Below, piece after piece: positions 14,822-19,114 of a stretch of 64,000 nucleotides of DNA. The notes under the pieces are model-generated. The model saw only the letters and a program-made list of their open reading frames with translations. It did not search any database and was not told the DNA's origin. The number at the start of each line of letters is the position of its first letter. The first letter of the stretch is position 1. Source of the DNA: Candidatus Fervidifonticultor sextus (GTDB taxonomy: Bacteria > Sysuimicrobiota > Sysuimicrobiia > Sysuimicrobiales > Humicultoraceae). A program made the position numbers and the translations under genes. The stretch is from assembly GCA_031459875.1 (NCBI GenBank), contig JAVKHQ010000016.1:1-64000 (forward strand), in the 5' to 3' direction.

Positions 14822-17269
14822 CTATCGGACGACCACGTTGACCAGCCGCCCCGGGACCACGATCACGTCGGTCACGGTCTTCCCGTCCAGGTACTGGCGG
14901 ACCCTGGGGCTGGCCAGGGCCACCTCGCGCGCCTGCTGATCGCTGATGGCGGCCTCCACCTCCACGCGGTCGCGCACTCGACCGTTGACCTGCAGGACGA
15001 GCGTGATCCGCTCGGCGGCAGCCTTCTGCGGGTCGTAGGCGGGCCACGGCTGCAGATGCACGCTGTAGGGCTGCCCCAGGTGCTCGACCCACAGTTCCTC
15101 CGCGATGTGCGGGCACAACGGAGCCAGCAGCAGCACCAGCGTGCGGATCGCCTCCTCCCACAGCGGATCCTCCGCCAGCGGCGTCCCCTTGATCCGCTGC
15201 AGGGTGTTGGCAAACTCCATCAGCGCGGCGATCGCCGTGTTGAATCGGAAACCCTCGATGTCATCGGTCACACGGCGGACGGTGCGATGGATCCAGTACT
15301 CCAGGTCTCGAGGCCGCAGGTGGTCGGTGGGCTCCCGCACCGGCTTCGCAGGCTCGGTGACGAGCGCCCACACCCGAGCCAGGAAGCGCGCGATCCCTTC
15401 GATACCCCGAGGGTTCCAGGGCCCTCCCTCGTCCCATGGACCGATGAACATCAGGTAGGCCCGCAGCGTGTCGGCGCCGTACTGCTGCACGATCTCGTCG
15501 GGGTTGACCACGTTGCCGCGCGACTTGCTCATCTTGTTGCCGTCGGCGCCCAGGATGGTCCCCTGGTTGAACAGGCGGATCATCGGCTCGTCGAACTCCA
15601 CCAGCCCCAGATCCCGCATCACCTTGGTCCAGAAGCGCGTGTAGAGCAGGTGCATCACGGCGTGCTCGACCCCGCCGGTGTACTGGTCCACAGGCAGCCA
15701 GTACCTGGCCTTCTCGGGGTCGAACGGCCGCTGCTCATCGTGCGGGCTCAAATAGCGGTACTGGTACCAGGAGGAGTCGACGAACGTGTCCATGGTGTCC
15801 GTCTCGCGCCTGGCCGGGGCCCGACAGCGGGGGCAGGCGACGTTGAGGAACCCCTGGTGATACCGTAGCGGCGACTCGCCGGTTGGTCGGAACTCGGCAT
15901 CCTCGGGGAGCACCACCGGCAGGTCCTCGTAGGGCACCGGGACCGTCCCGCACTGCTGGCAGTAGATGATCGGGATGGGGGTGCCCCAGTAGCGCTGCCG
16001 ACTGATCAGCCAGTCGTGCAGGCGGTAGTTGACCTTGCGCTCACCGATGCCGCGCGCCACCATGTCGTCGGCGATGCGCTCCCAGCCCACATCGGAGGGC
16101 AGACCGTCGTAGGGTCCCGAGTTCACCATGGTGCCCGGGCCCAGATAGGCCTCCCGCAGCGGGCTGCCGTCCCATCCCGGAGGCGCGATGACCACCGGGA
16201 TGGGCAGCCCGTACTTGCGGGCGAAGTCGAAGTCGCGCGCATCGTGCGCCGGGACGCCCATGATGGCGCCGGTGCCGTACGTCAGCAGCACGTAGTCGGC
16301 GACGTAGATAGGCACCGGCGCCTGATTCATCGGGTTGATAGCGTAGGACCCGATGAACACGCCGTCCCGCTCCTTCTCGGTCGACTGCCGCTCGATGTCG
16401 GACTCGCGCGCGGCCTTGTACTGGTAGGCCTCGACCTCCCCCCGGCGGTCCGGGGTCGTCAGGACATCCACCAGGGGGTGCTCGGGCGCCAGCACGCAGA
16501 ACGTCATCCCGAAGACGGTGTCGGGCCGGGTGGTGAAGACGCGGAAGGACGCCCCGGGCCGACCCTGGACGGAGATCGCGAACTCGACCCCGCGGCTGCG
16601 GCCGATCCAGTTGGTCTGCAGCGTGCGGACCCGTTCGGGCCAGTCGATCTTGGAGAAGTCCAGCAGTTCATCGGCATACGCCGTGATCCTCAGGAACCAC
16701 TGCTCCAGGTTCTTCTTGACCACGGGTGTCCCGCACCGCTCGCAGACCCGCTCCTCCCCCACCACCTGCTCGCGGGCGAGCGTCGTGTTGTCCTTGGGGC
16801 ACCAGTCGACCGGGGCGAGGGCGCGGTAGGCCAGACCGCGTTCGTACATCTTCAGGAAGAACCACTGGTTCCACTTGTAGTAGGACGGATCGCAGGTGAC
16901 GATCTCGCGCTCCCAATCCCACATGGCCCCCATGGAACGCAGCTGGCGGCGCATCCGGTCGATGTTGTCCATGGTCCACCGGTAGGGGTGGATCCCGCGC
17001 TCGATGGCCGCGTTCTCCGCCGGCAGGCCGAACGCATCGAATCCCATGGGGAGCATGACGTTGTAGCCACGGCGGCGCTTGTAGCGGGCCACCGCATCGG
17101 AGGGCGCCATGGGGTACCAGTGGCCCACATGGAGGTCGCCGGAGGGATACGGGTACATGGTCAGCAGGTAGTACTTGGGGCGCGGATCGAAGTCCGGCGC
17201 GTGGTGCAGCCGGTCGGCTTCCCACCGGGCCTGCCACTTACGTTCAATGGCCGACGGATCGTACCGCAT
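14822..17269 (-). CDS. leuS: Leucine--tRNA ligase
   Basis: MYPYPSGDLHVGH (HIGH), DWLISRQRYWGTPIP, KMSKS, LQVNGRVR. Confidence 0.98.
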   Translation of the reverse strand: MRYDPSAIERKWQARWEADRLHHAPDFDPRPKYYLLTMYPYPSGDLHVGHWYPMAPSDAVARYKRRRGYNVMLPMGFDAFGLPAENAAIERGIHPYRWTMDNIDRMRRQLRSMGAMWDWEREIVTCDPSYYKWNQWFFLKMYERGLAYRALAPVDWCPKDNTTLAREQVVGEERVCERCGTPVVKKNLEQWFLRITAYADELLDFSKIDWPERVRTLQTNWIGRSRGVEFAISVQGRPGASFRVFTTRPDTVFGMTFCVLAPEHPLVDVLTTPDRRGEVEAYQYKAARESDIERQSTEKERDGVFIGSYAINPMNQAPVPIYVADYVLLTYGTGAIMGVPAHDARDFDFARKYGLPIPVVIAPPGWDGSPLREAYLGPGTMVNSGPYDGLPSDVGWERIADDMVARGIGERKVNYRLHDWLISRQRYWGTPIPIIYCQQCGTVPVPYEDLPVVLPEDAEFRPTGESPLRYHQGFLNVACPRCRAPARRETDTMDTFVDSSWYQYRYLSPHDEQRPFDPEKARYWLPVDQYTGGVEHAVMHLLYTRFWTKVMRDLGLVEFDEPMIRLFNQGTILGADGNKMSKSRGNVVNPDEIVQQYGADTLRAYLMFIGPWDEGGPWNPRGIEGIARFLARVWALVTEPAKPVREPTDHLRPRDLEYWIHRTVRRVTDDIEGFRFNTAIAALMEFANTLQRIKGTPLAEDPLWEEAIRTLVLLLAPLCPHIAEELWVEHLGQPYSVHLQPWPAYDPQKAAAERITLVLQVNGRVRDRVEVEAAISDQQAREVALASPRVRQYLDGKTVTDVIVVPGRLVNVVVR

Positions 17270-17295
17270 CGTCATCCCCCGCAGGACCGGATCGC

Positions 17296-18225
17296 TCACC
17301 GCGCCGGGACGGGCACCGGCGTCAGCCAGCCGTGCCGGTCGGGAAGCCGGCCTTCGGTGATGCCGAAGAACTGCTCCTGGAGCCGCACGGTGACCGGGCC
17401 CCGGCGGCCCGGTCCGATGGGCTGGCGGTCCACCGACCGGATCGGCGTGATCTCCGCCGCGGTCCCGGTGAAGAAGGCCTCGTCCGCCACGTAGAGCATC
17501 TCCCGCGGGATCGCCATCTCGCGCACCTCGATCCCGAGGTCCCGGCACAGGGTCATCACCACCCCGCGCGTGACCCCGCCCAGGATCGAGGCCGCCAGCG
17601 GCGGAGTGTAGACGATCCCGTCGCGGACCAGGAACAGGTTCTCGCCGCTGCCCTCGCTGACGTACCCCTGCACGTCCAGGGCGATCCCCTCGGTGTACCC
17701 GTTGTCGACGGCCTCCATGACCACGAAGGCCGAGTTCACGTAGTTCCCGCCGATCTTGCCCATGCCGGGCAGAGTGTCAGGCGCCACCCGACGCCACGAA
17801 CTGACCATCACGTCCACCCCCTGCTCGATGGCCTCGGGACCCAGGTAGCGCCCCCACTCGAAGGTGAGGATCGCCACGTGCAGCGGGCAGGCGCGGTGGT
17901 CGACGCTGAGCGACTCCACGCCGCGAAAGGCCACCGGGCGGATGTAGCAACTCCGGTGCCCGTTGGCGCTGACGGTGTCGAGGACGGCACGCTCGAGGTC
18001 CGCCGCCGCATAGGGCAGCGCCATCCGGAAGATGCGACAGGAATCCTGGAAGCGCCGGAGGTGCGCGCCCAGGCAGAAGACCGCCGGCCCCGTCGCGGTC
18101 TCGTAGGCCCGGATGCCCTCGAAGACGCTCGATCCGTAGTGGACCACGTGCGAGGCCACGTGAATGCGCGCGTCGTCCCACGGAATCAACGTACCGTCCA
18201 TCCAGACCCGGCTCGCTCTCTGCAC
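17296..18225 (-). CDS. ilvE: Branched-chain amino acid aminotransferase
   Basis: HYGSSVFEGIRAY, KIGGNY (PLP lysine), EGSGENLF, GTAAEITP; GGAGGT RBS before GTG 18225. Confidence 0.95.
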   Translation of the reverse strand: MQRASRVWMDGTLIPWDDARIHVASHVVHYGSSVFEGIRAYETATGPAVFCLGAHLRRFQDSCRIFRMALPYAAADLERAVLDTVSANGHRSCYIRPVAFRGVESLSVDHRACPLHVAILTFEWGRYLGPEAIEQGVDVMVSSWRRVAPDTLPGMGKIGGNYVNSAFVVMEAVDNGYTEGIALDVQGYVSEGSGENLFLVRDGIVYTPPLAASILGGVTRGVVMTLCRDLGIEVREMAIPREMLYVADEAFFTGTAAEITPIRSVDRQPIGPGRRGPVTVRLQEQFFGITEGRLPDRHGWLTPVPVPAR

Positions 18226-18252
18226 TGCCGCCACCTCCACGAAGACAATGAT

Positions 18253-18280
18253 GCCGCCTCCACCCAAGGGCGAAGGCGGC
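18253..18280 (-). terminator. T-box expression-platform hairpin (terminator or sequestrator; no clear U-tract)
   Basis: GCCGCCTTCGCCC pairs with GGGTGGAGGCGGC and overlaps the antiterminator 3' strand; followed by ATCATTGTCTT. Confidence 0.65.
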
Positions 18281-18319
18281 CTCCGCGGTACCACCCCGGT
18301 TGACAGATGCCGCAGCGGC

Positions 18320-18394
18320 TGGTGGAGCAGAGGGGAATTGAACCCCCGACCTCCCGCACGCCAAGCGGGCGCTCTCCCGCTGAGCTACTGCCCC
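18320..18394 (-). tRNA. tRNA-Ala (anticodon GGC), CCA encoded
   Basis: GGGGCAG TA GCTC AGCGGGA GAGC G CCCGC TTGGCGT GCGGG AGGTC GGGGG TTCAATT CCCCT CTGCTCC ACCA; full cloverleaf with G3.U70 Ala identity pair. Confidence 0.96.
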
Positions 18395-18598
18395 ATGGCA
18401 CCTGTCCGCTTCAGGCCCGTATCGTGGACGGACGGTGGAGGCTAGGGGACCGGACCCCGTCGTCTCCACGGCTCCCGGGCGAGTTCGGCGATCCCGCCGG
18501 TCGGTTCGCACCGTCCCCGACTCGCTCGGCGGCAGGAGGTCCGCCTACTGCTCCCGATCATCGCCATCCTGCGATGGACCGTCGGGCCCATCACCACG

Positions 18599-18626
18599 AT
18601 TATACGCGCGCCCGAGGGGGCGTCAA
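18599..18626 (-). promoter_or_regulatory. Sigma70 promoter TTGACG-N16-TATAAT driving T-box/tRNA-Ala/ilvE/leuS
   Basis: Near-consensus hexamers about 35 nt upstream of Stem I. Confidence 0.8.
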
Positions 18627-18628
18627 CC

Positions 18629-19114
18629 TCACAGCTTGTAGCCGAAGCGCCGTAGCAGGTCCTTGCGCCAGGCCACCTCGGCCTCGTCCTCGACGCCCAG
18701 CGGCACCCAGCCGTCCAGCACGCCCAGGATCCCCCGCTGGTCGGCCTCTTCGGCCACCACCACCTTCAGGGGATTGGCCGTGGCCGCGAAGATCCTGACG
18801 ACCTCCGGGCAGGCCTTCACGGCGTGGAGGACGTTGATGGGATAGAACCCTTCGCCCAGCACAATCAGGAAGCAGTGGCCGGCTCCAATCGCGAGGGCAT
18901 TCCTGACGGCCAGGTCGACCAGTGTCGCATCGGTCCCGGTCTTCCGGACAAGCCGCCTTCCGCTCGACTCGCAAAACGCCAGGCCGAACCTGATGCCGGG
19001 GACCGCGGTCACCAGGGCCTCGTGCAGGTCCTCCACCGTCTTGATGAAGTGGGACTGCCCGAGGATGATATTGAGGGCCTCAGGCTTCTCGATGGGGACG
19101 ACTGTGAGCTCCAT
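18629..19114 (-). CDS. Adenosine-specific kinase family protein (DUF355)
   Basis: NIILGQSHFIKTVEDLHEAL, FCESSG, GFYPINVL, ATANP, RGILGVLDG. Confidence 0.85.
   Translation of the reverse strand: MELTVVPIEKPEALNIILGQSHFIKTVEDLHEALVTAVPGIRFGLAFCESSGRRLVRKTGTDATLVDLAVRNALAIGAGHCFLIVLGEGFYPINVLHAVKACPEVVRIFAATANPLKVVVAEEADQRGILGVLDGWVPLGVEDEAEVAWRKDLLRRFGYKL

Follow-up and report, generated by a model that had tools for sequence, protein, structure and literature searches.

T-boxes are the textbook example of RNA that reads tRNA, and processing of one of their leaders, that of B. subtilis thrS, stabilizes the thrS mRNA. In mascRNA, at the 3′ end of MALAT1, and in the tufB operon, recognition of a tRNA fold by RNase P defines the ends of the neighboring RNA; neither of these is known to sit inside a riboswitch that itself reads tRNA. 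As described in the excerpts available to us, canonical transcriptional T-boxes (RF00230; the B. subtilis tyrS, glyQS, and leuS types) are built from Stem I with its specifier and distal platform, Stem II, Stem IIA/B, an RRRxG-Stem III-AA motif (defined in the accessible part of PMC7583486), a UGGU bulge, and alternative terminator and antiterminator helices. Some T-box leaders are parted from their message: the excerpted accounts of B. subtilis thrS and thrZ (PMC3997798) describe a cut near the terminator by RNase J/Y, and that of the S. aureus met leader (PMC7913692) a cut by RNase III, in each case at ordinary sites. The discriminator can also accept additional sequence. An extra helix in Stem III or helix A2 is tolerated in staphylococcal glyS (stem Sa; PMC7583486), and translational T-boxes tolerate discriminator insertions (PMC9177973), but in the available portions of both sources these are plain helices, not genes. 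The closest item found in the literature is GOLLD RNA (PMC12990946), which likewise holds a tRNA inside a larger structured noncoding RNA; unlike the element described here, GOLLD is, by the excerpt at hand, no tRNA sensor, and its embedded tRNA differs among examples.

We analyzed a stretch of 64,000 nucleotides from Candidatus Fervidifonticultor sextus (GCA_031459875.1, contig JAVKHQ010000016.1, positions 1 to 64,000; this whole stretch is herein called the window). Ahead of ilvE and leuS it contains a leader that shares the canonical T-box parts listed above, with CUC as its specifier. Unlike the canonical T-boxes, it accommodates within the loop of Stem III an entire tRNA gene, functional in appearance, that is specific for another amino acid. 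Here the reader would also yield a tRNA, and would do so from the domain that inspects tRNA 3′ ends. In contrast to thrS, thrZ, and met, the cuts in this leader would be dictated by the structure of the tRNA, and one of the products would be a tRNA. A full-text literature search found no account of a tRNA gene within a T-box; an earlier mention in the T-box surveys of 2008/2009 is possible, and nesting goes unmentioned in the available parts of Wels 2008 and the TBDB paper.

Anatomy of the Nested Leader

All parts of the nested leader lie on the minus strand. Together with the promoter-like site before it and the two genes after it, they are as follows:

18599..18626, minus strand: promoter-like site TTGACG-16-TATAAT (a consensus match only, 11 of 12 positions; mean of 0.1 sites in shuffled sequence)
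18573..18592, minus strand: 5′-terminal leader hairpin GAUGGGCC..GGUCCAUC (minimum-energy fold; putative function)
18263..18570, minus strand: T-box leader with Stem I, Stem II, IIA/B, Stem III, and antiterminator (RF00230 alignment)
18481..18483, minus strand: specifier codon CUC (Leu), with GAA before it (18486-18484) and the purine G18480 after it (RF00230 alignment)
18397..18411, minus strand: purine string AAGCG (18411-18407) and Stem III 5′ strand GACAGGUGCC (18406-18397)
18320..18394, minus strand: tRNA-Ala(GGC) with G3:U70, A73, and encoded CCA (ARAGORN; Rfam tRNA, 66.6 bits against a cut-off of 29)
18300..18319, minus strand: 3′ trailer GCCGCUGC (18319-18312), Stem III 3′ strand GGCAUCUGUC (18311-18302), and conserved AA (18301-18300)
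18266..18297, minus strand: antiterminator with helix A1 GGGG, bulge UGGUACC (18293-18287), and helix A2 (RF00230 alignment)
18241..18281, minus strand: terminator hairpin (about 18281-18253) and U-rich tail AUCAUUGUCUUC (18252-18241)
17296..18225, minus strand: ilvE, branched-chain amino acid transaminase (NF005146, 418 bits against a cut-off of 279)
14822..17290, minus strand: leuS, leucine-tRNA ligase (TIGR00396, 993.7 bits against a cut-off of 548)

Positions 1-219 of RF00230 all align to 18570-18263, with a score of 53.9 bits (E 1e-10). This falls below the gathering cut-off of 93 because the Stem III loop carries a 91-nt insertion relative to the model, which is the tRNA; the other T-boxes of this genome likewise score below 93 bits on RF00230, and sub-gathering T-box scores are common at this G+C content. 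Stem I contains GAA-CUC-G (18486-18480) and, in its distal loop, GGUGCGAA. The register of the specifier agrees with that of five other T-boxes of this genome, and GAACUCG is common to 29/30 relatives' loci. The discriminator is made up of AAGCG, a Stem III of 10 bp in which GACAGGUGCC pairs with GGCAUCUGUC, AA, UGGUACC (pattern UGGNACC), and helices A1 and A2; GGUGGUACC is invariant in the 30-sequence alignment. The original prediction, which came from the letters of the window alone, had placed the bulge at 18293-18287, 26 nt beyond the embedded tRNA, and had counted two unpaired nucleotides ahead of that tRNA. Every sequence detail of that prediction is correct: the bulge is where it was placed, exactly 26 nt separate A76 from the first U of the bulge, and two unpaired nucleotides (AU, 18396-18395) lie between Stem III and G1. 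On its 3′ side, A76 is followed by a trailer of 8 nt.

Folding of the single sequence at 37 °C recovered Stem III and the terminator and left out the cloverleaf. RNAalifold on 30 sequences recovered the cloverleaf as well as the terminator helix, the latter with compensatory pairs; misalignment of the variable trailers kept it from finding Stem III. This genome has a weak, interrupted U tract, and its leader does not pass a strict terminator rule; the tract is clearer in relatives, including the Chloroflexota and Bacillota examples. Within 18226-18263 (minus strand), the terminator 3′ strand GUGGAGGCGGCA is nearly repeated as GUGGAGGUGGCGGCA, which contains the Shine-Dalgarno sequence of ilvE (GTG start; GGAGG at 18238-18234). 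In principle, the ilvE ribosome-binding site could be a second pairing partner of the terminator 5′ strand.

TTGACG-16-TATAAT is the single promoter-like site across 18100-18750, and the scan of this interval found none within the T-box leader. Hairpins that resemble the one at the 5′ terminus of the leader are visible at same-genus loci (L012-L014). The leuS start is approximate and lies just past the ilvE stop; the TIGR00396 match begins at residue 96 of the longest ORF (14822-17548). In the host phylum ilvE stands between the nested T-box and leuS, as it does in the window (17296-18225). Directly after the nested T-box comes leuS in Chloroflexia and Bacillota examples (compared loci L044, L118, L122, and L139), and in some Chloroflexota a small unrelated ORF comes first.

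The Nested Gene Is the Sole tRNA-Ala(GGC) Identified in the Genome

The complete tRNA gene, with its terminal ACCA at 18323-18320, lies within the Stem III loop. A cloverleaf that scores above the Rfam cut-off, G3:U70, A73, and the anticodon GGC identify it as tRNA-Ala; the RNAalifold cloverleaf has G3:U70 in 30/30 sequences and compensatory changes in three stems. The anticodon loop reads UUGGCGU (18358-18364, minus strand), so that U32, G37 (after C36), and U38, to which the original prediction had drawn attention, can be read directly. G37 is unusual among Ala tRNAs. Across the 94 genomes of the phylum searched with an anticodon-arm pattern, A37 is found in genera g2, g3, g9, and g12, families f5 and f6, and part of g15. 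Most members of families f1 and f2 have G37, which recurs in f4, where tRNA-Ala(GGC) stands alone; it is therefore not tied to nesting and, on this distribution, is a lineage trait.

ARAGORN returned two "Ala GGC" calls in the whole genome, which is 96% complete, and the nested gene is the only real one. The second call, on contig C1, is without tRNA features and was rejected. In all, ARAGORN made 53 calls in the genome, 46 ending in CCA and 7 without CCA (C1:80779-80854, C66:8394-8469, C12:46428, C13:12525, C17:3366, C37:13653, and C66:85011); these 7 also lack a tRNA-like sequence and are probably false positives in this G+C-rich genome. In the 94 phylum genomes, the Ala(GGC) anticodon-arm pattern gave one match with a self-complementary stem per genome among the matches listed, a tally judged by reading these matches, with some genomes giving non-tRNA matches only. 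In genomes found to be nested, the listed match is the nested copy itself.

GCC accounts for ∼45% of Ala codons and is the second most frequent codon of this genome, according to an approximate tally of stop-to-stop frames 500 codons or longer, some of which are shadow frames. The status of the nested tRNA as sole copy argues that it is functional. Among six T-box alignments of this genome, none is an Ala-specific T-box able to read the nested tRNA. If the nesting is more than hitch-hiking, a single molecule would tie leucine control and RNase P activity to the supply of the most used alanine tRNA.

Nesting Is Conserved across Phyla

When 18200-18600 was compared by BLAST with 60 relatives, many genera showed full-length matches. 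The tRNA-Ala(GGC) stands at the same place in 30/30 of the relatives' loci, and a complete Leu T-box surrounds it in 29 of the 30. A strict pattern (T arm, CCA, 6-36 nt, GGTGGNACC) matched 40/94 genomes of the phylum, 38 of them with an Ala-type end; the reversed pattern, used as a control on the same 94 genomes, gave 0 matches. Eight further nested genomes have a longer trailer or a divergent core (G016, G018, G029, G030, G049, G052, G037, and G043), and nesting is thereby found in at least 46 of the 94 genomes of the host phylum. The strict pattern matched none of the 23 genomes of family f4. These tallies include G013 and G022, and no claim depends solely on either of them.

The arrangement extends to other phyla. 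In a sample of Chloroflexota, 43/401 genomes match the strict pattern, about 40 of them Ala-type; of 30 loci fetched from this group, 29 have a tRNA-Ala(GGC) enclosed by a CUC T-box, and the remaining one matched by chance. At least three metagenome-assembled genomes (MAGs) labeled Bacillota, Firmicutes, or Thermoanaerobacteraceae are also nested, each with leuS directly downstream, as is one further Chloroflexia MAG among the matches listed, again with leuS directly downstream. The nesting site is identical in all phyla seen. The arrangement has thus been kept in at least three phylum-level groups, and because of this conservation nesting is far beyond chance. Other tRNA 3′ ends (..CGCUACCA and ..CGGCACCA) have GGTGGGACC, GGTGGCACC, or GGTGGAACC no more than 36 nt downstream at G015:C129:135-195 and G093:C185:1100-1162 and on G054:C22, G057:C22, and G048:C30; these may be chance matches or other tRNA/T-box neighbors.

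Stem III was analyzed at 59 loci by anchoring. The purine motif lies beside a stem of 6-11 bp in 41/59 loci and is missing in the other 18; the procedure favors a candidate beside the purine motif and fails with mismatched stems and with an AU-rich Chloroflexia group. The stem covaries, with several pair types per position (position 3, for example, has CG 34, UA 15, and UG 8). At least six contiguous pairs form between a locus's own Stem III strands in 49/59 loci, compared with 23% of 3316 cross-pairings. The unpaired 5′ leader of the tRNA measures 0-4 nt in the host phylum and up to about 30 nt elsewhere, and the trailer measures 1-41 nt, with 115 nt in G043.

At the level of sequence comparison, these data confirm that the element is a T-box variant, that it is conserved, and that the tRNA gene nested in it looks essential. 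Homology searches set to the standard T-box length miss such leaders, and genome annotation shows a seemingly free-standing tRNA gene before leuS.

Un-nested and Stem I-less Relatives

Three genera of the same family (g2, g3, and g9) have an intact Leu T-box before ilvE that scores 57-80 bits and carries the same GGUGGUACC core. In these genera a tRNA is located 121 nt to 3.3 kb upstream of the T-box on the same strand (L189-L194), and it was verified as Ala(GGC) in 5/6 genomes. The un-nested T-box of G007 (L190, G007:C25, 391-825) comes with a TTGACT-17-TACAAT site of its own, and its Stem III is a hairpin of 13 bp. Elsewhere, an internal promoter-like TTGCCG-17-TATAAT or TACAAT, identified by consensus match only, is seen at L175 (1649-1677, minus strand) and L172 (1398-1426, plus strand); this Chloroflexia-type site overlaps Stem II or IIA-B, about 40 nt before the nested tRNA.

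A further form is seen in G011 (L205, G011:C76, 430-665, minus strand), one MAG in whose leader Stem I and Stem II are absent. There, no more than about 10 nt separate a promoter-like TTGACG-18-TATAAT from the purine string GGGAG, after which come a Stem III of 5 bp that encloses the tRNA, then AA, the antiterminator, the terminator, ilvE, and the essential leuS; transcription appears to begin at this purine string. G011 is the single representative of the Stem I-less form, because the only other genome of this kind, G025, has a contig that breaks off within the tRNA. With leaders that are nested, that have the tRNA just upstream, that have it unlinked, or that have lost Stem I, the natural series offers ready-made controls for experiments, and G011 is the natural case best suited to a test.

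Probably One Transcript with Two Products

The explanation we favor, and regard as probable, is a bifunctional leader: a leucine-sensing transcriptional T-box that is at the same time the precursor of the cell's only tRNA-Ala(GGC), the tRNA being a passenger that is excised. Anatomy, conservation, sole-copy status, and the presence of the enzymes are observed; that the parts are co-transcribed, in what order the steps follow, and that the tRNA does not act in cis are inferred. One promoter would give rise to an RNA that serves as both T-box and pre-tRNA-Ala(GGC), in which the nested tRNA occupies the distal Stem III loop, the sole part of the discriminator domain free to vary. During transcription, uncharged tRNA-Leu(GAG) would bind the CUC specifier and the UGGU bulge and so decide between termination and read-through into ilvE-leuS; the accessible part of PMC7583486 describes the T-box decision as co-transcriptional. 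The pre-tRNA would be present in every transcript, terminated or read-through. RNase P at the 5′ end, and an endonuclease and trimming exonucleases at the 3′ end, would release the tRNA, most likely after the decision, and the nested ACCA would be no ligand of its own riboswitch.

Because the tRNA-Ala(GGC) is the sole copy and the leader has no promoter-like site inside it, the tRNA must be cut from the T-box transcript. Excision would therefore split the leader in the Stem III loop and give the read-through ilvE-leuS mRNA a new 5′ end, which we place immediately 5′ of the antiterminator/terminator hairpin; base pairing in the 10-bp Stem III could hold the two halves together. The original prediction had combined processing of the embedded tRNA, which would disarm the switch, with cross-talk in cis between its ACCA and the bulge. 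On the grounds just given its processing half can be retained by inference, but the cis half gains no support, as detailed below. The genome contains RNase P RNA of type A (251.8 bits), RNase E/G (353.5 bits), and RNase Y (731.8 bits), and a search of it for RNase J gave no match at or above the cut-off.

The variable lengths of leader and trailer, together with the three genera that have an un-nested Leu T-box, suggest that T-box and tRNA work independently, which supports the bifunctional leader. The weak U tract of this genome's terminator counts against it. Across phyla, the pairing of a Leu T-box with tRNA-Ala(GGC) has been kept more than a neutral passenger predicts and therefore hints at a selected benefit. 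In the host phylum the few unpaired nucleotides before G1 could hinder RNase P; maturation of the tRNA may therefore be coupled to the structure of the leader.

Alternative Explanations

One candidate for such a benefit would be a built-in processing signal: excision of the tRNA would sever the sensor, set the half-life of the ilvE-leuS mRNA, and clear spent leaders, and this would keep nesting selected. Excision is unavoidable given the sole copy, the processed message would start immediately ahead of the antiterminator/terminator hairpin, and all phyla seen share the nesting site. Cuts within the terminator or upstream of it affect stability in known leaders, as set out in the excerpts on thrS and thrZ (PMC3997798) and on S. 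aureus met (PMC7913692). Sister genera, however, manage without nesting, and we consider this role unlikely; it is compatible with the bifunctional leader, not exclusive of it. Very unlikely, in our estimate, is a kinetic or structural part for the 75-nt tRNA, which would lengthen the path from specifier to antiterminator or stiffen Stem III and so give tRNA-Leu more time or a better scaffold. The insertion does put about 90 nt before the decision point, and the un-nested Stem III of G007 is also long, but a delay has no need of a functional, sole-copy tRNA, and no fixed delay is kept because the trailer varies from 1 to 115 nt. That the T-box is a relic, and the element just a tRNA gene with promoter and terminator, would agree with the RF00230 score below the gathering cut-off and with the weak U tract of this genome; yet every T-box module aligns, conservation across phyla extends to the specifier, the purine string, and GGUGGUACC, and the stems show compensatory changes, which makes a relic extremely improbable.

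The cis cross-talk of the original prediction would have the nested tRNA, cleaved at its 3′ end and tethered through its 5′ leader and Stem III, place its ACCA in the UGGU bulge and either mimic the ligand or block tRNA-Leu. The ACCA is complementary to UGGU from a position 26 nt upstream, the short host-phylum leader keeps the tRNA near Stem III, and in G011 some Stem I-independent read-through must occur because only the tRNA and the discriminator precede ilvE-leuS. The complementarity is nevertheless expected. The prediction was right that A73 is shared with Leu tRNA, since the tRNA-Leu(GAG) of this genome also has A73, but so do 22/46 of its CCA-ending tRNAs in all (ARAGORN), and UGGU fits A73 of the cognate tRNA-Leu(GAG); because the bulge fits its own ligand and A73 is this frequent, the match is uninformative. 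The fourth base of the bulge also fits the cognate discriminator in five other T-boxes (Gly UGGA, Trp UGGC, Asp UGGC, Val UGGU, and the second Leu UGGU). A nested ACCA is accompanied by UGGA in three Chloroflexota leaders. This would speak against contact in cis, but the Leu tRNAs there presumably also carry A73, and for that reason these leaders do not discriminate between the readings. The lengths of stem (6-11 bp), leader, and trailer vary, and no constant geometry for reaching the bulge was found, a geometric argument that draws solely on this variability; un-nested orthologues in g2, g3, and g9 retain the same core. According to the portion of PMC7583486 available to us, G1 and A76 of the ligand tRNA both stack on the discriminator and must be free, and steric rejection of 3′ adducts is complete even for one no larger than glycine; an unprocessed or half-processed nested tRNA should therefore not be a productive ligand. 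A fully processed one would no longer be tethered and is without a matching anticodon, and exact 3′ trimming in the second or so before the terminator is transcribed seems unlikely. Contact between ACCA and the bulge in cis is thus disfavored by both the comparative data and the known mechanism, and we regard it as highly improbable.

G011, together with the internal promoter-like site of Chloroflexia-type leaders, also invites the proposal that the discriminator works alone around the nested tRNA, with specifier-less read-through perhaps governed by the state of the 3′ end of the nested or just-released tRNA-Ala or by the general pool of uncharged ACCA-tRNA. We think this distinctly doubtful; if true, T-boxes would have a new mode of control that does without Stem I.

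Elsewhere in this genome, a Guanidine-I riboswitch-like match (L001, G000:C34, 1762-1866, minus strand; 61.1 bits against a cut-off of 63) sits about 45 nt upstream of the second Leu(CUC) T-box.
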